This document shows positions 2,594-58,205 of a stretch of DNA of 64,000 nucleotides, in pieces (position 1 is the stretch's first letter; each line of letters opens with the position of its first letter). Position numbers and translations under genes: made by a program. The notes under the pieces are model-generated. The model saw only the letters and a program-made list of their open reading frames with translations. It did no database searches and was not told the origin of the DNA. Source of the DNA: Minisyncoccota bacterium (GTDB lineage Bacteria; Patescibacteriota; Minisyncoccia; Phycocordibacterales; UBA9973); contig JBAZVG010000001.1 in NCBI GenBank assembly GCA_041661005.1, positions 6,019 through 70,018 of the forward strand. The letters run 5' to 3'.

Positions 2594-3100
2594 ATGTCAA
2601 AAGAAATTCTCAATAGAATACTTGTTGTAGGAGATGCTGGCAGGGGAAAATCTACGTTGGCATCAAAAATTTCTGAAAAATTAGGGATACCGCATCATTC
2701 AACTGATGATTTTTATTATGAAGTAAAATTTTCTAAAGTTCGTGATAGGCCAGAAAGTATTACCAAAATTAAAGAAATTTTTGGAAAGAAAAAGTGGATC
2801 GTTGAAGGCACAAACAATCATCTAATTGAGCTCGGTCTTCACTCCGCTGATATAATTATTCATCTTAAATATAAAAGCATGCTTGCTCAGTGGGTGGTTC
2901 TCATTAAAAGATATTTCAAGAGAGAAAACGAGACTTTGGGGAAATTGTTTAGTCTTATGAAACATGTTTTTTATAAAAAATATAAATTAGGAGATAGAAA
3001 ATTGAAGCTAACCCATTCTGAACTTATTGAACCACACAAGCAAAAAGTAATTACGCTGTCTTCTTTTAAAGAAATTGATGGGTTTTTAAAATCTTTATAA
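2594..3100 (+). CDS. P-loop NTPase / small-molecule kinase-like protein (adenylate-kinase/AAA_17-like)
   Basis: Walker A motif VVGDAGRGKSTLA at the N-terminus; 168 aa. Confidence 0.5.
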   Translation: MSKEILNRILVVGDAGRGKSTLASKISEKLGIPHHSTDDFYYEVKFSKVRDRPESITKIKEIFGKKKWIVEGTNNHLIELGLHSADIIIHLKYKSMLAQWVVLIKRYFKRENETLGKLFSLMKHVFYKKYKLGDRKLKLTHSELIEPHKQKVITLSSFKEIDGFLKSL

Positions 3101-4839: not shown

Positions 4840-6438
4840 ATGAAAAATTCCCCTTTAATTTACGGACTCCAAAGACCCAACGATAAACCTGATTTGATTT
4901 TAGTTAATTCACCAATAAGAGATTATACAGATGAAGAGAGACAGGAAACAGAACAATTACCAGCAATAGGCTTAGGATACATTGCAACTGTGTGTGAAAA
5001 AGCAGGTTTCAATGTTGGTTTGCTGGATGTAGAGGTTAATGGTTTGTCACCAGAAAAAGCAGCTGAAATAATTAATGAATCAAACCCTAGATGGGTTGGT
5101 GTTAATATGCTCACGCCAACTTTTCCTTTAGCTAAAAGAATTATTGCAAATATAAATAAGGGTATTCAAATTGAAGTTGGTGCTGCACATTCAAAAGCAT
5201 TATCAGAAAAAATATTAAGAGATTCAGAAATAGGTCACAAAATTGATTTAATCGTGCTTGAAGACGGTGAATTAATATCAAAAGGACTTCTTGAGGGAAA
5301 GAATCCCAGCGAAATGGGTGGGGTTGCTTATATAGACAAGTCTTCTGGTCAATATATTGAACACAGAGGAGACCCAGAAGGAAAATGGATTCCTAAAGAT
5401 TTAGATGCCTTACCATACTTGAATAGAAAATTTTTTAAAAATGGAATAATCAAATCGGAAGGAAGATTGGAAGCAAATATTGTAGGATCTCGAGGATGTC
5501 CTTTTTCTTGTCCATTTTGTGCTGGTGCAAAAGAAATGTTGATATTTGGGATTCGACAACGATCCATAGAAAATATTGTACAGGAAATAAAAAATCTAAA
5601 AGAACAAGGAGTAACGGCGATTAGATTTATTGATGATTTATTTTTATCAAGTCCAGCTCGCATAAAGCAATTTTTTAAACTAATGACTGAAGCAGGATTA
5701 AATGAACACGTTGTATGGGATGCAACAGGTAGAGCTAATATATTATCAAAACTAGACAAAGAAACATTAGAATTGATGGCGCGTAGTGGTGCTAGAGAAA
5801 TATCAATAGGCGTAGAGTCGGGATCACAAAGAATGCTCGATCTTATGAATAAAGGAATTAAACCAGAAATGGTAAGAAGCGCTATAGTAAATTTGGCATC
5901 TGTAGGAATACGCACAAAAACATATTTTATGTTGGGTATTCCTTCTGAAACGGAAGAAGAAGCGAAAGAGTCCGTAGCATTTATGCACGAATTACGTAAT
6001 CTTGCCAGAAAGACTGTTGCTGAGAATCCATTAACTCCAACAGGTAAACAGAATGAGGCTCAAAGTAGAGGAAGTATGTTTATTTTTCGACCATATCCAG
6101 GAACCCCTTTTAGTGAGCAGTTACAGGGTAAAAAAGAGTGGCCAGAAGGAACATGGAAAAATTCAGAACAACCATTATTTACAGAAGAAGAGATACTTGA
6201 GAGTTTTCATCCAACAACAATAAAACCTGGATTAGAAGTAAGACAAAAACATAGTTTCAGTACAACATTGCAATTGGGACCCTTGGAACCATCAAAAATA
6301 CAAGAAATGGTAGATGGTGCCATGCTCGCACAAAAGGAAGATATGGTTATACACGGGGAGTATTTGCCAGGCATAAAAGAAATAAAAGCTGAAAATAATG
6401 GAATAAATAAAACAGGAATGCCGTGGCGTATTGCTTAA
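4840..6438 (+). CDS. Cobalamin-binding-domain radical SAM enzyme (class B radical SAM)
   Basis: 532 aa. The N-terminal ~130 aa form a B12-binding-like Rossmann segment (LILVNSP...IGLGYIA...VGVNMLT). The CX3CX2C cluster is GSRGCPFSCPFCAG, and a TIM-barrel radical SAM core follows. Confidence 0.75.
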   Translation: MKNSPLIYGLQRPNDKPDLILVNSPIRDYTDEERQETEQLPAIGLGYIATVCEKAGFNVGLLDVEVNGLSPEKAAEIINESNPRWVGVNMLTPTFPLAKRIIANINKGIQIEVGAAHSKALSEKILRDSEIGHKIDLIVLEDGELISKGLLEGKNPSEMGGVAYIDKSSGQYIEHRGDPEGKWIPKDLDALPYLNRKFFKNGIIKSEGRLEANIVGSRGCPFSCPFCAGAKEMLIFGIRQRSIENIVQEIKNLKEQGVTAIRFIDDLFLSSPARIKQFFKLMTEAGLNEHVVWDATGRANILSKLDKETLELMARSGAREISIGVESGSQRMLDLMNKGIKPEMVRSAIVNLASVGIRTKTYFMLGIPSETEEEAKESVAFMHELRNLARKTVAENPLTPTGKQNEAQSRGSMFIFRPYPGTPFSEQLQGKKEWPEGTWKNSEQPLFTEEEILESFHPTTIKPGLEVRQKHSFSTTLQLGPLEPSKIQEMVDGAMLAQKEDMVIHGEYLPGIKEIKAENNGINKTGMPWRIA

Positions 6439-9605: not shown

Positions 9606-10404
9606 TCTGAATTTTTTTTGGGGAGTGATTCTCGCGTGCACGCACGGGTGGGTAGGCTCGCGCGTACTCGCGCGAGCTGGGGCAAGCACGAGTATTTCGC
9701 CTCGGGCATTTCCGCTAGGGTGTCCATGACTAAAGGACGAGTGCCTGACCCGAATTGAAATCCAGAAATCGAAAGCGAAAGCGACACACTAAACACAATA
9801 TTGAAAAACGTAGAGTGGGGATGGCGAGGGCAGACTCCGCCAGCAGGCGGAGAGCCCGACCCGGGGAGAGGAAACTTCCTCTCCCCAAGAAGCGCGGGAA
9901 ACCGAACGGCTCATTTCCTGGTATTTGAGCCGTTCCGGTTTTCCCGCTCATAGGCATCTAGGCACTCGTAGCCCTAGCGGAAATGCCCGAGGCGGATGCC
10001 GAGGGTGCACTCTCAAAACTCTCAATAACCACCAAAATAGAAAAATGGTATAATGCCCGAGACAATGTTTTGAATTTTGAATTTGAATTTCTCCTGCGGG
10101 CAGAATTCGGAATCTCGCCAAAAGACACAGCCGAGGAAAATGGAAATCTAAATCCCCAAAATATTTGTTTCCATTTTCCGAGTCCGTTTGAATTAGCACA
10201 TTAGTAGAGCGTGGTAGAAATATTGAAGAAAAGAAAAAAGTGGAGCGTAAACCTTGGTTCGCTTGGAAACTTTTACAAATTTCTGCTAAAGTAGGTTCTA
10301 GCGGTATCGTAAAGGTACTCCCTCGGTCGTAGATCTACGGGCGAGACCAGCCGATGTAGCTCAGCTTGCCCCGCCTGAGCTAGGCGGGGTGAAGTAGAGC
10401 ATAG

Positions 10405-10477
10405 GCCGATGTAGCTCAGTTGGTAGAGCATCGCTTTCGTAAAGCGAGGGTCGACAGTTCAATCCTGTCCATCGGCT
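10405..10477 (+). tRNA. tRNA-Thr (anticodon CGT)
   Basis: Manual cloverleaf: acceptor gccgatg/catcggc, D-arm gctc/gagc, anticodon stem tcgct/agcga, loop ttCGTaa, T-arm gacag/ctgtc. No encoded CCA. Confidence 0.85.
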
Positions 10478-10493
10478 CCGCAATAAAAATATC

Positions 10494-47474: not shown

Positions 47475-47714
47475 GTGGGCGAGGGGAGACTTGGTCAGGC
47501 ATAATTTTCTGCTGAAAATTTGCACGACCCTGCCTCTTCCGACCTAAAGTCGGAGTCCGGCTTTCTCGTCCTAAAATACTTCGTATTTTACCTCGTGGGC
47601 GAGGGGAGACTTGGTCAGGCATAATTTTCTGCTGAAAATTTGCACGACCCTGCCTCTTCCGACCTAAAGTCGGAGTCCGGCTTTCTCGTCCTAAAATACT
47701 TCGTATTTTACCTC
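47475..47714. repeat. Two perfect 120-bp tandem direct repeats, each beginning with the last 19 nt of tRNA-Leu(TAG) (gtgggcgaggggagacttg on this strand); the intact tRNA follows at 47716
   Basis: Read directly. Period is exactly 120 (47475, 47595, then the tRNA copy at 47715). Each unit also carries the aattttctgctgaaaattt motif and a ccgacctaaagtcggag hairpin. Confidence 0.75.
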
Positions 47715-47715
47715 G

Positions 47716-47797
47716 TGGGCGAGGGGAGACTTGAACTCCCACGGCTTGCGCCACCAGTTCCTAAGACTGGCGTGTTTACCAATTACACCACTCGCCC
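47716..47797 (-). tRNA. tRNA-Leu (anticodon TAG), type II
   Basis: Minus strand: acceptor gggcgag/ctcgccc, anticodon stem ccagt/actgg, loop ctTAGga, long variable arm, T-arm gggag-ttcaagt-ctccc. Confidence 0.85.
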
Positions 47798-48046: not shown

Positions 48047-48562
48047 TTAACTTTTTATGAAAAGATTATTTCTATCCTTCATCTTATTATGCTGTTTTGT
48101 ATTTCTTCCTCGATGTGTTGTTTGTAGACTGTGACAATTTGGACACAGAATTCTTAAGTTTTCTAATCTGTTGTCATGCCTATCTCCATTGATGTGATCT
48201 AACTCCAGGGGTACTCTACCATCAATCGACATTTTAGCCCAACTACACTCTTCACATTTAGGTTCCTTTAGTTTAACTAAAAAAAGTCTTTTTTTCAACT
48301 TAAAGCTTTGATAGGTACTATTTTTCACTAAAATATCTTTTAAAGCTATGACTGGTATAAATGGCCTTTTTAATCCTTTATTCCAGAGCATTCCTGTAAA
48401 ATGTTTTGTAGATATTTTATATTCTCTTATATATTTTTTTACTTGATCATAATTTCCACCTGCGGGCACTAATCCTAAAATTTTTATTACGTTTCTGTAA
48501 CTTTTAGAATCTTTAACTGCATTTTTTAATTGCTCTTCCGACCAACTTCTTTTTTTAGGCAT
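48047..48562 (-). CDS. HNH homing-type endonuclease (free-standing)
   Basis: ELDHINGDRHDNRLENLRILCPNCH (HNH motif with Zn-binding Cys pairs CEEC...CPNC). It lies between tRNA-Leu(TAA) and tRNA-Cys. Confidence 0.75.
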   Translation of the reverse strand: MPKKRSWSEEQLKNAVKDSKSYRNVIKILGLVPAGGNYDQVKKYIREYKISTKHFTGMLWNKGLKRPFIPVIALKDILVKNSTYQSFKLKKRLFLVKLKEPKCEECSWAKMSIDGRVPLELDHINGDRHDNRLENLRILCPNCHSLQTTHRGRNTKQHNKMKDRNNLFIKS

Positions 48563-48634
48563 AAATTAAAAGGGCACACCGATAGTGTATCATACAATCG
48601 CTTGTATACCTAATAAAATTAGAAGTAATTAAAC

Positions 48635-48709
48635 TGGAGGCCTGGGGCGGAATTGAACCGCCGTATATTCCTTTTGCAGAGGAATGCCTTACCACTTGGC
48701 TACCAGGCC
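48635..48709 (-). tRNA. tRNA-Cys (anticodon GCA), CCA encoded, discriminator U73
   Basis: Minus strand: acceptor ggcctgg/ccaggcc, anticodon stem ttcct/aggaa, loop ctGCAaa, T-arm ggcgg-ttcaatt-ccgcc, then T-CCA. Confidence 0.85.
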
Positions 48710-48729: not shown

Positions 48730-48775
48730 TTAAAGCCTCTGCGCAGAGGAATGCCTTGCTGTCTTGGCTACCAGG
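48730..48775 (-). other. Degenerate partial copy of the tRNA-Cys 5' half (pseudo-tRNA fragment) just upstream of the intact gene
   Basis: ctgcgcagaggaatgccttgctgtcttggctaccaggcc, compared with the gene's cttttgcagaggaatgccttaccacttggctaccaggcc. Confidence 0.5.
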
Positions 48776-48810
48776 CCGTTTTTAAACTATAACCTATAAC
48801 CTAGAAGCTA

Positions 48811-53462: not shown

Positions 53463-53519
53463 GAAAGACCACATACACCAGCTTGACAGCTAGTGTATAA
53501 TCTAAAATATATATATAAT

Positions 53520-56273
53520 ATGCCACCATTAAATAAATTTACAACTAAATCAAGGGATGCGATTAAAAAAGCCCACGAGCTTGCCATCGAACGCGGGGTG
53601 AATCATGTTTCATCAGTGCATTTATTGGCTGCATTGCTTCTCCAAGAAGAGAGCATGGTGAATTCAATTTTGGACAAATTGGAAATCGATACAATGCTCT
53701 TGACTGATTCTATTTTAGAATTGATTGAACTACCTGAAAGTCACAATACTCTCTCTCCCTCTTATCAGATTTATCTCAATCCTGATTTGGCGCAAGTCAT
53801 AGATCAATCAGCTAAATTGGCAGAATCAATGAAAGATGATTTTGTTTCGACTGAACATCTTTTTGTTGCAATATTGGAAGTTGCGAGCGAAGCGCGGGAA
53901 GCTTTGGCACGATTTCGAATCCACAAAGATCCTGTCATGAAAGTTCTGGAAGAATTGCGCAGTCAAAATATCACCGATATCACAGAACCAAAGAAGTTTA
54001 AATTACTTTTGAAATATACTAGAAATTTAACCAAATTAGCAAAAGAAGACAAACTGGATCCGGTTATCGGCAGGGATAATGAAATAACGCGTATCATGCA
54101 GATACTTTCGCGTCGGACAAAGAATAATCCTATTTTGATCGGTGAGGCTGGCACCGGAAAGACGGCTGTAGTGGAAGGTTTGGCGCAAATGATAGTCAAA
54201 AATAATGTTCCGGAATCGTTGAAGGACAAAGAGCTCGTTTCTCTCGATCTTGGACTTCTTGTTGCCGGCACAAAGTATCGCGGAGAATTTGAGGAAAGGC
54301 TAAAGGGTATCATGAAAGAAATCGAACGATCGGATGGAAAAGTGATTCTCTTTATTGATGAAATTCACACTATCGTCGGCGCTGGAGGCGCGGAGGGAAC
54401 GATGGATGCCTCGAATATGTTAAAGCCGGCGCTTTCACGTGGAGAGTTGCGCGCTATTGGCGCGACGACGTTGCGAGAATATCAAAAGCATATTGAAAAA
54501 GATCCAGCTCTAGCTCGGCGTTTTCAGCCTGTATATATTGATGAGCCTAGTGTTGAAGATGCCATAGCCATCCTTCGGGGCTTGAAGGAAAAGTATGAGC
54601 TCTTTCATGGTGTTCGTATTACTGATGATGCCATAATCTCTGCGGTGAATCTTTCTGCCCGCTATATCACAAATAGATTTTTGCCCGACAAGGCGGTGGA
54701 TTTGATAGATGAGGCATCATCTTCTCTTAAAATAATGCTGGAAAACAAGCCACCAGTTTTAGAAGATGCTCATAGAAAAATAATGCGTCTGGAAATAGAA
54801 AAGGAGGCTCTCAAAAAAGAGATTGCTGTTTTAAGCGCAGAGAAAGACAGGGAAGAAAAAGAAAAGGCGAAAGAAAAAAATAATGAGATAAAAAATAGGC
54901 TCAAGGAAGTGGACAAGGAGATAGGTAATTTGCATGAGAAAACAAAGGAGCTCGAACTAAAGTGGCAAAATGAGAAAACAATTGTTGTTGAAGTTCGCGC
55001 CATAAAAAAAGATTTAGAGAGTCTGCGATTGGAGGCGGAAGGCGCTGAGATGAAATCGGATCTTTCTCGCGCGGCTGAAATACGTTATGGAAAGATTCCT
55101 GAATTGAAAAAGGATCTAGAGGCAAAGCTTTTACGATTAAAGAAGTTGCAAAAATCGCGCCGAATTTTAAAGGAAGAAATTACAGCGGAAGATATTGCCG
55201 AGGTGGTGGCTCGATGGACGGGAATACCGCTTACAAAGATGCTTGAAGAGGAACGTGAAAAGTTGGAAAAGATGGAATCGGAATTGAGGAAAAGAGTGGT
55301 GGGGCAAGATGAGGCTATAAAGCGTGTGTCGGATGTTATACGGCGTTCTCGCGCCGGCATAGGAGACCCTAATAGACCTATCGGTTCTTTTATTTTTTTG
55401 GGTCCTACTGGGGTGGGCAAGACAGAGCTCACCAAAGCCCTAGGGCAATTTATGTTTAACGACGATCGAGCGATTATTCGTGTGGATATGTCTGAATACA
55501 TGGAAAGACACTCGGTTTCCAAACTCATCGGCTCTCCTCCGGGATATGTGGGTTATGATGAAGCAGGGCAATTGACGGAATCAGTGCGTCATCGTCCGTA
55601 TGCGGTGATACTCTTTGACGAAATTGAGAAAGCGCATCCGGAAGTTTTTAATATGCTTCTGTCGGTTATTGATGAGGGAAGATTGACTGACGGCAAAGGC
55701 AGAGTGGTGAACTTTAAAAATACCATTATAGTTCTTACTTCTAATATCGGTTCACAATTCGTGGAGAAAATGGAATCAATCGGATTCTCCAATAATTCTA
55801 AAAAACAAGATTATAGCAATATGAAAGAAAAAGTTCTGGAAGCGCTGAAAGACAATTTCCGTCCGGAATTTTTAAATCGTCTCGATGAGATTGTTGTTTT
55901 TGATGTCTTATCGGAATCAGCTATTGCTGAAATAGTTAGCTTGAGAATAAAAGTAGTTGTAGATAGACTAGCAACCAAGGGGATTAATTTCGAGATTTCT
56001 AATGAGGCATTGTCGCATCTAGCAAAAGAAGGTTATGATCCGCACTATGGAGCTCGTCCCTTAAACCGCTTGATTCAGAATAAAATCTTGAACCCTGTTG
56101 CCTCTTATATTATTTCAAACGGAGTAAAGAAAGGGGATACTGTGTTTGTCTCAACAAAGAACAACGAGCTGGTCATTGAAACTAAAAAAGGTAAAAATCA
56201 CCACCGCCTCTGGAGGAGTCCCGCAGAAAGCGGGAAAAGCACATTTCATGTGCGATCTAGGTCGTCGGTTTAA
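53520..56273 (+). CDS. clpB: Chaperone ClpB (AAA+ disaggregase)
   Basis: Clp_N repeats. NBD1 [16 protein letters not shown] long coiled-coil middle domain. NBD2 [14 protein letters not shown] with sensor ARPL. Start chosen at MPPLNKF. The C-terminal ~28 aa extend beyond typical ClpB. Confidence 0.85.
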
Positions 56274-56660
56274 AGGAAATGAAAAACAAAAAACCCGTCT
56301 TGCGACAAGTTTTTTTGTTGCGGGACGGGATGATTAAGGTTTTTTCCTCTGTCCTGACTTCAATTCCTTACCAAGGGCTTGAAGATCAAGCAGCAATTTA
56401 TGCAACGAGGAATCCAAAGTGCCGTTTTGGTGTCTGCGATATCGCCGGCGACCAAGATTTCTGCCTGCGATTTTGCAAAGGCCAATAGGGATGAGGTTGG
56501 TTTTCATATTGTGCTAGCTGATTTCTTTTGTTGATCAACATTGTAGTTGCAACAATCGTGTTTTCCACTAAAGTATCATCTAATCTTTATAAAATGTTAA
56601 AATGAATATGTAGTAGAGTAGTCAATTGCAACTTATTCTAGATAGTGTTATCATTAGATA

Positions 56661-57473
56661 ATGGTTAGACGTTGGACAAAAAAAGAAGAAGGCAAGTATC
56701 GATCAGAACTTTTTAAGATTTATGTTAAACAGAATAAAAGTTTGGGTGAGGTTTCAAAAATTTTAGATATATCGGAGCAAGCAGTTTTTCGAAGATTGGG
56801 GCGTTTGGGGATTAAAACACAACCGCATTTAAAAAAGAATTACTTAAAAAAGCGGATTGATGTACGAATTCCAGATAAATACTCTGAAGATCTGGCGGAA
56901 TTTTTTGGTATTATGCTTGGTGATGGGCATATAAGTCATTTTCAAGTTGTGGTTAGCTTGGGTAATAAAGAAGAAAAATATGCAGAATATGTCAAATCGC
57001 TTATCAAGAAAATATTTAAGACGAATGTAAAAATTTCCCTTCGAAGTAAGGGATACCGAGATGTTTATCTTGGTTCAGTGGCTATAACATCATGGCTCCT
57101 TAAGGAAGGGCTTGTTCACAATAAGGTCAAATCACAGGTCGATGTGCCAATGTGGATATTTAGTAAAAATAATTTTATAAAGCGTTTTTTAAGGGGATTT
57201 TTTGACACTGACGGATCGGTATACAAATTAAAATATGGTATTCAAGTGTCCTTTTGCAATCGGTCTTTACCGATACTTCTATCTTTACAAAAGATGCTTA
57301 AAAAGTTAGAATACAATCCGTCACGTTTAAGTTCGTATAATATGTATCTTACTAAAAGGGAAGATGTTAAAAGATTTTTTCAGGAGATCAAACCATCTAA
57401 TCCTAAACATGTAAGTAGATATTTAAACATTTCAAACAACATGCGTCGGTCGGATAGTGGCTATTCCAGGTGA
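56661..57473 (+). CDS. LAGLIDADG-family homing endonuclease (two motifs, single-chain) with N-terminal HTH; free-standing
   Basis: Motif 1 LAEFFGIMLGDGHIS, motif 2 FLRGFFDTDGSVY, N-terminal SLGEVSKILDISEQAVFRRLGRLGI. The last 31 nt of the ORF overlap the tRNA-Tyr 5' end. Confidence 0.75.
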   Translation: MVRRWTKKEEGKYRSELFKIYVKQNKSLGEVSKILDISEQAVFRRLGRLGIKTQPHLKKNYLKKRIDVRIPDKYSEDLAEFFGIMLGDGHISHFQVVVSLGNKEEKYAEYVKSLIKKIFKTNVKISLRSKGYRDVYLGSVAITSWLLKEGLVHNKVKSQVDVPMWIFSKNNFIKRFLRGFFDTDGSVYKLKYGIQVSFCNRSLPILLSLQKMLKKLEYNPSRLSSYNMYLTKREDVKRFFQEIKPSNPKHVSRYLNISNNMRRSDSGYSR

Positions 57474-57524
57474 CTGTAAATCACCCGCCTTCGGGCATCG
57501 TTGGTTCGAGTCCAACCCGGCGCA
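57443..57524 (+). tRNA. tRNA-Tyr (anticodon GTA), type II
   Basis: Acceptor gcgtcgg/ccggcgc (one U-G), D-arm gga/tcc, anticodon stem ggtga/tcacc, loop ctGTAaa, long variable arm cgccttcgggcatc, T-arm gttgg-ttcgagt-ccaac, discriminator A. Confidence 0.8.
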
Positions 57525-57585
57525 CAATAAAAATCCACCTTTTTACTTCATGAAGTTTTCATCTATACTGTAATAGTATAGATAT

Positions 57586-58128
57586 ATGTTAAAATTTGTT
57601 TTATCAATATTCATTATAACGTCTTTTGGATTTTACGTTTTTCAGCAGAACGTGATTGGTTCTGCTAATATTCCATCAGTGCCGGTGGTTGCTACTGGTC
57701 CTAACGGCGCAGACAACAGTACAAAAAAAACTACTAAGCCTACTACGGTCGTTAGAACCACTCCTGTTGTAAATAATCCTCCTTCTAAATCTATGATGAA
57801 TAATGGGGGGATGATGGGAGGCGGAGGAATGATGAATCAAGGCACTTTTAGAAATGGTGAATATGTAGGCTCTGTTGCTGATGCTTATTATGGATATGTG
57901 CAGGTGAAAGCGGTTATCACAAACGGCAAGCTTTCGGATGTTATTTTTCTGGATTATCCTCAAAGCAGATCAACTTCTGTTCGGATTAATTCATACGCCA
58001 TGCCTATTTTGAAACGAGAAGCCATCATCGCTCAAAGCGCGAATGTTGATGCTGTTTCAGGAGCGTCTGCTACCAGCCCGGCTTTTGTGAAATCTTTAAC
58101 ATCTGCTCTCAATCAGGCAAGAATATAA
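57586..58128 (+). CDS. Secreted/membrane-anchored FMN-binding domain protein (FMN_bind)
   Basis: N-terminal anchor, Gly/Met-rich linker. The C-terminal FMN_bind fold ends in NVDAVSGASATS (the flavinylation Ser/Thr site motif). Confidence 0.6.
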   Translation: MLKFVLSIFIITSFGFYVFQQNVIGSANIPSVPVVATGPNGADNSTKKTTKPTTVVRTTPVVNNPPSKSMMNNGGMMGGGGMMNQGTFRNGEYVGSVADAYYGYVQVKAVITNGKLSDVIFLDYPQSRSTSVRINSYAMPILKREAIIAQSANVDAVSGASATSPAFVKSLTSALNQARI

Positions 58129-58205
58129 AATATTACTTGTCCCGTACTAAATTTTAGATTACGGGACATAAAGATAGACATTATTAATAAAATTTTAGTA
58201 CTGGG

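Follow-up and report, generated by a model that had tools for sequence, protein, structure and literature searches.

I-Ssp6803I is the homing endonuclease of a group I intron in a bacterial transfer RNA (tRNA) gene, tRNA-fMet. WhiA, a Gram-positive transcription factor, consists of two degenerate LAGLIDADG domains and a helix-turn-helix (HTH) unit, and its catalytic Asp has been lost. In fungal mitochondria, mobile open reading frames (mORFs) are present in atp6 of Allomyces macrogynus and in atp6, atp9, cox2, and nad3 of Glomus; in this design, a free-standing LAGLIDADG or GIY-YIG gene resides in a host gene, has brought with it a foreign copy of the end of that gene, and has left the native end behind as a remnant (PMC3630166). 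SegB is a free-standing T-even phage endonuclease, which is encoded in a phage tRNA cluster and cuts within tRNA genes, referred to as "intronless homing" (PMC13096335). Moreover, where integrase-borne islands and prophages reside in tRNA genes, a complete tRNA copy is accompanied by a partial one (PMC9897764). Here, we discuss how a LAGLIDADG endonuclease gene that runs into tRNA-Tyr in a Minisyncoccota bacterium compares with these systems. The gene is located on contig JBAZVG010000001.1 (assembly GCA_041661005.1), and "the window" refers to the whole stretch of DNA that was analyzed, 64,000 nucleotides (nt) corresponding to contig positions 6,019 to 70,018; all coordinates below are window positions.

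The endonuclease gene is part of a ~0.84-kb insert inside a former tRNA-Tyr gene, with a 5′ stump of this gene upstream and a different, intact tRNA-Tyr at its end, a split architecture in which we have high confidence. The unit is made up of the following features.

56610..56632 (+), tRNA-Tyr 5′ stump GTAGTAGAGTAGTCAATTGCAAC, 23 nt, D arm, corresponding to tRNA positions ~7-29
56626..56654 (+), predicted promoter (consensus scan): -35 box TTGCAA within the stump, 17-nt spacer, TG-extended -10 box TATCAT
56633..57470 (+), inferred insert relative to an uninterrupted tRNA-Tyr, comprising the -10 box, the ORF, and the new tRNA 5′ part (left boundary from alignment A2, see below)
56661..57473 (+), single-chain LAGLIDADG endonuclease ORF, 270 amino acids, ATG start (ORF list, Pfam, AlphaFold2 model)
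56679..56804 (+), N-terminal three-helix (HTH-like) domain, residues 7-48 (AlphaFold2 secondary structure)
56892..56927 (+), LAGLIDADG motif 1, LAEFFGIMLGDG, with the catalytic D88 at 56922-56924
57186..57215 (+), LAGLIDADG motif 2, FLRGFFDTDG, with the catalytic D184 at 57210-57212
57443..57473 (+), overlap between the ORF 3′ end and the tRNA, 31 nt (9 codons and TGA)
57443..57525 (+), intact tRNA-Tyr(GTA) (ARAGORN)

A protein search with the window endonuclease identified 865 homologous protein clusters at E≤1e-3; among the 120 matches listed, the proteins are ~240-300 amino acids long and the named ones originate from Patescibacteria/Paceibacterota metagenome-assembled genomes. Scanning with one genome per species revealed relatives in 288 genomes, and the best 80 loci were fetched (81 with the window; individual loci are given L numbers). 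As in the window, a carried replacement gene adjoins the endonuclease ORF in every related locus that extends far enough, with tRNA-Tyr(GTA) positioned 3′ of the ORF on the same strand (78/78). The abutment is tight, and a KH motif in the protein is mostly located 29-42 nt ahead of tRNA base 1. The position of the stop codon ranges from 9 nt before the tRNA up to 61 nt within it, and many of the C-termini read ...RRSDSGYSR(RL), others ...ASVG or ...RVGTQAVNEDAL. Since the tRNA is entered in all three frames, with translation ending wherever a stop codon occurs, the tRNA-encoded tail is incidental. The flanking genes vary between the related loci, with clpB upstream in about a third of them. 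Judging from these sequences, the juxtaposition of the ORF and tRNA-Tyr is a conserved design and not a local accident.

In the window, tRNA base 1 is the third base of codon M261, and the DNA of the acceptor strand, the D arm, and the beginning of the anticodon stem encodes residues 262-270 (RRSDSGYSR) and provides the TGA. The intact tRNA has a long variable arm, G1-C72, and A73, while CCA is not encoded, and its D arm is of "type A" (TCGGATAGTGGCTATTCCA), unlike that of the stump. The Rfam tRNA model matches 57443..57524 at full length with 51 bits (gathering score 29) and without an insertion in the anticodon loop. Hence, ARAGORN and Rfam both agree with the initial annotation, in which the last codons of the ORF overlap the first 31 nt of an intact tRNA-Tyr(GTA) that lacks an intron. 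The scan with intron covariance models that the annotation had proposed was performed with Rfam over 55800-58200, where the tRNA was the only match and neither a group I intron nor any other Rfam intron family was detected even at E≤10. Moreover, no Hint/intein domains were found in the 270-amino-acid protein with Pfam. The ORF is consequently neither inside a self-splicing intron nor associated with intein domains, as would be the case for an intron- or intein-encoded endonuclease.

The stump became visible when the 60 nt 5′ of the start codon were lined up across the 80 loci, where a 5′ part of tRNA-Tyr is present in most. In L003, L025, L035, and L056, the 5′ part is complete and has its acceptor strand [e.g., GCGTCGGTGGCAGAGCGGTCAATTGCAA in L025, GCGTCaaTGGTAGAGTGGTCAATTGCA in L003, and GCGTCGGTACTCAAGCGGTCAACGA in L056]; in the window, the acceptor strand is gone. 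Local alignment of the window stump with the tRNA of L198 gives a score of 31, whereas none of 78 control windows scores above 20. When the upstream regions were aligned to full tRNA-Tyr, 34 of the 81 scored ≥24 vs none of the 78 controls, while the stump 17-mer AGAGTGGTCAATTGCAA (≤4 mismatches), the end of which is usually 28-31 nt before the ATG, was recovered in 46/81 upstream regions vs 2/486 control windows. A second copy of the first 33 nt of the intact tRNA (≤3 mismatches) was not found anywhere in the window; the stump, being of a different allele, escaped this repeat search. It carries a "type C" D arm, which is intact in close relatives without the ORF, and differs from the intact tRNA of its own locus at 10 of 17 positions and from the tRNA of L099 at 2 of 18 (by eye, alignment A2). 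The displaced native segment thus persists and is closer to the relatives' allele than the carried copy is. Alignment A2, which compares occupied and empty sites, shows a common sequence through GGTCAATTGCA(A). Past this break, the anticodon stem-loop ACAGACTGTAAATCTGT follows at the empty sites, and an AT-rich stretch and the ATG follow at the occupied ones. Homology is accordingly lost at tRNA position ~27-29, the junction of the D arm and the anticodon stem, and not in the anticodon loop.

The predicted -10 box ends 6 nt before the ATG, suggesting that the transcript would start at or beside the start codon and be leaderless. A TGnTAnnnT box is located 14-17 nt 5′ of the ATG in about half of the 80 related loci. 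Recruitment of the stump as a -35 box would explain the strong conservation of this seemingly dead fragment. The 170 nt preceding the ORF, which the initial annotation regarded as non-coding and possibly a degenerate intron remnant, therefore hold a tRNA stump (56610-56632) and a promoter-like site (56626-56654), with no match to an intron. Further upstream, three features are of relevance.

53493..56273 (+), clpB, conserved upstream neighbor (ORF list)
56288..56315, terminator-like hairpin directly after clpB (predicted, consensus scan)
56595..56603 (+), TGTTAAAAT, 6 nt before the stump, probably what is left of the original tRNA-Tyr gene's extended -10 box

Assignment of TGTTAAAAT as what is probably a relic of the old tRNA-Tyr promoter is tentative and by analogy: the empty-site relatives L198 and L147 have TGTTATTTT 8 nt before tRNA base 1, and L003 retains TGTTACTTT ahead of its stump. 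Between clpB and the stump lies a 335-nt stretch (56274-56609) with a G+C content (GC) of ~0.42, higher than that of the ORF; in the relatives without the ORF, the corresponding stretch is only 53-103 nt. Neither the fetched loci nor the rest of the window contain a detectable homologue of this segment, and no Pfam match was obtained for the small ORFs within it, 56279-56488 (+) and 56334-56507 (-).

The initial annotation suggested that relatives lacking the ORF at the tRNA-Tyr locus should be sought, and such empty sites were indeed found. With the window ClpB as query, tblastn identified 46 loci in which clpB is followed by tRNA-Tyr, with or without the endonuclease gene. In L099, L095, L198, L147, L121, L164, and L106, clpB is followed directly by tRNA-Tyr with spacers of 7-103 nt; ClpB is 85-86% identical to that of the window in L099 (spacer 103 nt), 84% in L095 (63 nt), 82% in L198 (53 nt), and 81% in L147, and the shortest spacer, 7 nt, is that of L121. 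Empty-site spacers in the window's clade have a recognizable promoter, TGCAAA...TGTTATTTT, that ends 8 nt before tRNA base 1. Moreover, ORF-bearing and ORF-less loci are interleaved in the ClpB tree. The locus is thus polymorphic for presence and absence of the insert at a fixed site among relatives, as seen for occupied and empty clpB-tRNA-Tyr sites in alignment A2.

Presence of the ORF goes together with a switch of the tRNA allele. In the window's ClpB clade, the ORF-less L099, L095, L198, and L147 have a type C tRNA, while a type A tRNA accompanies the ORF in the window, L002, L010, and L011; L072 in the same clade, with an endonuclease of only 53% identity, has a type B tRNA. In all 44 loci compared, the stump and the intact tRNA behind it differ at ≥6 of 17 positions (median 9). 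An intact type C tRNA is present in 4/79 ORF-bearing vs 46/86 ORF-less loci (Fisher p=1.5e-12), and among clpB-linked loci in 0/28 vs 9/15, in tests that ignore shared ancestry and compare two locus sets that were sampled differently. The whole tRNA accompanies the insert, including the T loop (GAGTCC vs GAATCC). In addition, endonuclease identity is unlinked to ClpB identity [Spearman rho 0.11, 378 pairs; e.g., window vs L011, endonuclease 64% and ClpB 82%; window vs L013, 66% and 67-69%]. The allele types of the stumps also differ (L056 has a type B stump with the full acceptor strand; see also L015, L035, and L066), which argues for several insertions at one position.

As proposed in the initial annotation, the 270-amino-acid protein has two LAGLIDADG motifs with intact catalytic residues, in keeping with the ORF list and Pfam, where LAGLIDADG_3 matches two stretches (E=2e-16). 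Truncation of the ORF or loss of a catalytic Asp, either of which had been considered as a sign of a dead remnant, is not seen; the ORF is complete, and D88 and D184 are present. Both residues are invariant in the 77 full-length related proteins, a count that is partly biased since the genome scan used motif peptides as search patterns, and also in 21/21 proteins picked by HMMER alone. The AlphaFold2 model, built on 21 homologues, has a mean predicted local distance difference test (pLDDT) of 86.4 and consists of a three-helix unit at the N-terminus and, after it, two LAGLIDADG half-domains (helix-strand-strand-helix-strand-strand-helix, repeated), i.e., the pseudo-dimeric alpha-beta-beta-alpha-beta-beta-alpha fold of single-chain LAGLIDADG enzymes. 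The N-terminal HTH noted earlier is supported in so far as the model has three helices at residues 7-48, but the window protein has no significant Pfam HTH match; Sigma70_r4_2 matches are found in some of its homologues. The tRNA-encoded tail is disordered in the model (pLDDT <50 for residues 264-270). Foldseek comparison with the PDB returned the TliVMA intein endonuclease (E=5.6e-12), I-Tsp061I, PI-PfuI, I-AniI, and I-DmoI, and also WhiA. The WhiA Pfam models score 23.7 bits (cut-off 23.2) and 16.8 bits (cut-off 23.4) on the window protein, and some public records name its homologues "WhiA" or "intein/homing endonuclease". For six pairs with close homologues (dS 0.55-1.6), the ratio of nonsynonymous to synonymous substitutions (dN/dS) is 0.08-0.13. 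The GC of the ORF is ~0.33 compared with 0.36-0.48 in its flanks, and the argument for a foreign origin based on this difference was dropped as the contrast is too weak. The endonuclease ORFs of L055, L075, and L079 (starts near position 3001) contain in-frame TGA codons at the sites of three invariant Trp residues of the family, W5, W145, and W165, which suggests that UGA may be read as Trp in this Patescibacteria lineage.

Together, these data are best read, by analogy, as a bacterial tRNA counterpart of the fungal mitochondrial mORFs. On the basis of the patchy distribution, the decoupled divergence, and the retained catalytic residues, we infer that mobility would be driven by the endonuclease. 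The initial annotation suggested that the endonuclease invaded a site beside tRNA-Tyr and perhaps targets this gene; a homing endonuclease is also what we favor, but the gene sits inside a former tRNA-Tyr gene, the stump of which is found upstream. The full mechanism, active homing into type C tRNA-Tyr genes and leaderless co-transcription with the replacement tRNA, is in our view probable. The enzyme would recognize ~20 base pairs across the D-arm/anticodon-stem junction of a stump-type tRNA-Tyr gene and cut there, and repair from a cassette-bearing copy would introduce both the cassette and the replacement tRNA. The latter would be immune owing to its different D arm, and the stump would be immune as the right half-site has been lost. 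A hybrid promoter, with the -35 box from the stump and the -10 box from the insert, would generate a leaderless mRNA that runs on into the tRNA. The ORF and the tRNA leave no space between them for a promoter, and hence the tRNA is most simply derived from the same transcript via RNase P cleavage. In this scenario, the probably sole tRNA-Tyr of the cell would be processed from a precursor whose 5′ leader is the endonuclease message, such that silencing or imprecise deletion of the cassette would be costly. Moreover, as the stop codon is part of the tRNA sequence, processing by RNase P would yield a message that has lost its stop codon, which may hold enzyme levels low.

The position at tRNA-Tyr is also used by other nucleases. 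In genomes without the two-motif LAGLIDADG gene, other ORFs end at or inside tRNA-Tyr. These encode GIY-YIG proteins (L088 and L157), PD-(D/E)XK proteins that abut the tRNA (Pfam PF11645; L085, L118, and L126), and ~215-amino-acid proteins with an HTH and a single LAGLIDADG-like unit (L194, L110, and L176). The GIY-YIG cassettes have a tRNA-Tyr 5′ stump as well, which ends at position ~28-30; that of L157 (positions 1-29) matches the intact tRNA downstream of the GIY-YIG ORF exactly. A stump was not detected upstream of the PD-(D/E)XK and the HTH plus single LAGLIDADG-like ORFs at tRNA-Tyr, and for these the split-gene design is not claimed.

Several observations weigh against active homing as described above. 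Four ORF-bearing loci have a stump-like D arm in their intact tRNA, and the sampling and ancestry reservations attached to the allele tests, like the bias in the Asp count, apply here. Over all pairs, the endonuclease and the tRNA type show no co-phylogeny deep in the tree (Spearman rho ~0), and support for joint movement of cassette and tRNA therefore comes from the within-clade pattern and the allele association. The right limit of the insert is possibly at or past the tRNA 3′ end; the DNA downstream is not alignable between relatives. As the whole tRNA accompanies the cassette, simple homing with the tRNA 3′ part as homology arm explains transfer between lineages incompletely. A metagenome scan based on a tRNA 3′-end pattern yielded 64 tRNA-Tyr loci with ≥900 nt of upstream sequence, none of which has the endonuclease ORF (0/64). 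The element may thus be rare or slow-spreading, and the scan gives empty sites in place of an estimate of its frequency. No decayed or pseudogene copies were found among the best 80 loci, which fits a host function too. A search of 2.9 million viral contigs gave only two distant relatives (29-34% identity), suggesting that phages are no obvious vehicle.

The absence of pseudogenes leads to the question whether the protein has been domesticated, i.e., whether an old, fixed insertion now serves the host, for example as a WhiA-like regulator of the tRNA-Tyr unit or as an autorepressor, without cleavage-driven movement. Strong purifying selection (dN/dS ~0.1), the number of homologues (865 at E≤1e-3) and of species-level genomes (288) with relatives, the overlap of the -35 box with the stump, which would hold a half-site, and the presence of WhiA among the structural neighbors in Foldseek are in keeping with such a role. 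Nevertheless, D88 and D184 are invariant, unlike the situation in WhiA, and the gene is missing in close relatives with ClpB 81-86% identical, where its absence goes with a different tRNA allele. Divergence of the endonuclease is, moreover, decoupled from that of ClpB, and in other genomes this position is taken by GIY-YIG, PD-(D/E)XK, or another LAGLIDADG-like family. Domestication, which was raised in the initial annotation as a DNA-binding protein put to host use, is thus disfavored by the invariant catalytic Asp residues, the patchy presence, and the unrelated nucleases at the same spot, and we consider it unlikely.

It is also conceivable that the nuclease is uninvolved and that a single illegitimate duplication or insertion was spread by ordinary recombination or transformation of the clpB-tRNA-Tyr region, in which case the link to the tRNA type would reflect shared descent. 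The stump consensus is alike across many loci and could mean a single origin, and the undefined right boundary is compatible with passive spread. Stumps next to an intact tRNA but without a nuclease gene, at tRNA-Thr and tRNA-Cys in the window and in L098, L131, and L126, show that duplication of a tRNA 5′ end can arise without this enzyme. Against this, the catalytic residues are retained and the whole protein is under selection; stumps of several allele types (L056, L015, L035, and L066) argue for independent insertions, and a second nuclease family is found at the same position. We regard this scenario as quite improbable. Even more remote from the data is a group I (or other) intron in tRNA-Tyr, the ribozyme of which decayed and left the ORF, as the initial annotation proposed for a former tRNA intron with a lost RNA part. 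LAGLIDADG genes are typically intron-borne and bacterial tRNA genes are known group I intron hosts (PMC3984707), but the region 55800-58200 has no intron model match at E≤10, the downstream tRNA is complete and uninterrupted, and the homology break at position ~27-29, at the D-arm/anticodon-stem junction, is not where the anticodon loop is. The stump and the promoter also account for the upstream non-coding DNA, and an intron remnant is for these reasons hardly credible.

Taking intron-less homing into tRNA-Tyr as the preferred reading, the other nucleases at this gene raise the possibility that a guild of such cassettes exists on tRNA genes in Patescibacteria (class Paceibacteria), comprising at least two and possibly four to five unrelated nuclease families. 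We put this forward tentatively, as plausible but short of probable. LAGLIDADG and GIY-YIG families would be members, and perhaps also PD-(D/E)XK, HNH, and single-motif LAGLIDADG-like proteins. In such a guild, a nuclease gene would enter at the 5′ side of, or inside, a tRNA gene, supply a replacement tRNA that keeps the cell viable, and capture the tRNA promoter, with its message as the 5′ leader of the tRNA precursor; it would also drive the horizontal replacement of tRNA alleles between lineages. The stump may then serve as an operator for an enzyme that represses its own promoter, and a stop codon buried in the tRNA may tie the enzyme level to RNase P processing.

Additional arrangements at tRNA genes were seen in the window. 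An HNH ORF of 172 amino acids, 48047-48565 (-), is located between tRNA-Cys and tRNA-Leu(TAA) (HNH_3, E=1.8e-6; HNH, E=1.2e-4) and ends 12 nt before the 5′ end of tRNA-Leu(TAA); no tRNA-Leu stump was found upstream of it. A tRNA-Cys 5′ stump (positions 1-34, score 48) is present at ~48742-48777 (-), 33-68 nt upstream of the intact tRNA-Cys at 48635-48709, with no ORF between the two, and could be the footprint of a lost cassette. At 10350-10404 (+), a partial 5′ copy of tRNA-Thr precedes the intact tRNA-Thr (10405-10479) by 2 nt; in this copy, positions 1-15 (GCCGATGTAGCTCAG) are followed by a GC-rich hairpin of 29 nt, cttgccccgcctgagctaggcggggtgaa, which replaces the D loop, and then by GTAGAGCAT. 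A similar hairpin, cttgccccgccgaggcggggtga, interrupts the tRNA-Tyr stump 5′ of the GIY-YIG gene in L088. Furthermore, in the region ~47560-47740 (-), 3′ of tRNA-Leu(TAG) (47715-47797), the last 19 nt of the tRNA and at least 52 nt that follow are directly repeated ~120 nt further downstream.

Short 5′ stumps without a nuclease ORF are also present 15-190 nt upstream of the intact tRNA in L098 and L131 (tRNA-Tyr, positions 1-18 and 1-22, respectively) and in L126 (tRNA-Leu, positions 1-27). In L098, the promoter region has been duplicated too, and the gap is filled by hairpins. A 3′ tRNA stump downstream was not found in most of the loci, and six have a different element there. This element, 130-170 nt in length and within ~200 nt after tRNA-Tyr, was seen in L016, L035, L036, L037, L063, L074, and L198. 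It starts with a terminator hairpin, which is followed by the inverted acceptor 3′ strand GTGCGCCGG, a hairpin, and an inverted T arm; a stretch of ~60 nt separates these from a second hairpin, whose loop is CTGTAA, and from the tRNA 3′ end copied in direct orientation. The tRNA-derived ends could pair, and no Rfam match was obtained for the element at E≤0.01.

The findings have implications for how an essential and probably single-copy RNA gene can be colonized. A selfish nuclease gene could do so without an intron if the part of the gene that is destroyed is replaced and the promoter is taken over. For a large family of single-chain LAGLIDADG proteins, the data provide a target prediction, the D-arm/anticodon-stem junction of one tRNA-Tyr allele, and the 865 protein clusters represent potential meganuclease scaffolds. 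The cassettes also offer a possible mechanism for horizontal swapping of tRNA-Tyr alleles among closely related Patescibacteria. With respect to annotation, tRNA stumps are easily overlooked or mis-called. The stumps of tRNA-Thr and tRNA-Cys and the HNH gene abutting tRNA-Leu in the window hint at generality in reduced genomes.

How, then, does the cassette relate to the systems introduced above? As for the tRNA group I introns, the landing site of the homing endonuclease is a conserved tRNA gene, and the PD-(D/E)XK genes abutting tRNA-Tyr in L085, L118, and L126 (PF11645) are a further point of contact with these introns. However, there is no ribozyme and no need for splicing, the site is the junction of the D arm and the anticodon stem and not the anticodon loop, and the tRNA is restored at the DNA level by duplication instead of by RNA splicing. 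WhiA shares with the window protein the two-domain LAGLIDADG fold and an HTH. In WhiA, the domains are degenerate, lack the catalytic residues, and are followed by a C-terminal HTH, whereas the window protein has kept both catalytic Asp residues and has its HTH-like unit at the N-terminus; the cassette also differs in being patchily distributed and tied to tRNA-Tyr. The integrase-borne islands likewise sit in a tRNA gene, rebuild an intact tRNA from a carried segment, and have a partial copy at the other end. They are, however, 9-120 kb long, encode a tyrosine or serine integrase, and usually have the 3′ part duplicated as near-identical repeats. In the ~0.84-kb cassette, it is the 5′ part that is duplicated, the two copies are different alleles, and the LAGLIDADG endonuclease gene is the sole ORF between stump and tRNA, with neither a recombinase gene nor near-identical att repeats.

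SegB is closer in that an endonuclease gene is linked to tRNA genes including tRNA-Tyr, with tRNA gene DNA as target (which for the cassette is a prediction), and in that spread by double-strand-break repair with co-conversion of the neighboring tRNA gene is what we propose here. SegB is nevertheless a GIY-YIG enzyme with relaxed specificity in phage genomes, while the cassette encodes a LAGLIDADG protein and is chromosomal in Patescibacteria. Moreover, SegB is encoded between intact genes, and a split tRNA, a stump, or an overlap between ORF and tRNA is not part of that arrangement. The closest resemblance is to the mORFs. In both cases there is no intron, the carried copy keeps the host gene functional, an unexpressed remnant of the native segment is similar to the allele found in close relatives, the ORF either continues into the carried segment or is in phase with it, and ORF-less alleles exist in relatives. 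The differences are that the host of the cassette is a bacterial chromosomal tRNA gene and not a mitochondrial protein gene, that the 5′ end is duplicated, which gives a mirror image, and that the whole tRNA has apparently been replaced. In addition, the remnant has been recruited as a predicted -35 box, and immunity would rest on a different D arm and not on synonymous changes. A description of a LAGLIDADG/tRNA-Tyr cassette in Patescibacteria was not found in the full-text literature, a search in which most subscription journals are outside coverage, and the arrangement appears not to have been described before. The design itself, a free-standing endonuclease combined with a duplicated segment of its host gene, is a known one, which is now seen at a bacterial tRNA gene.

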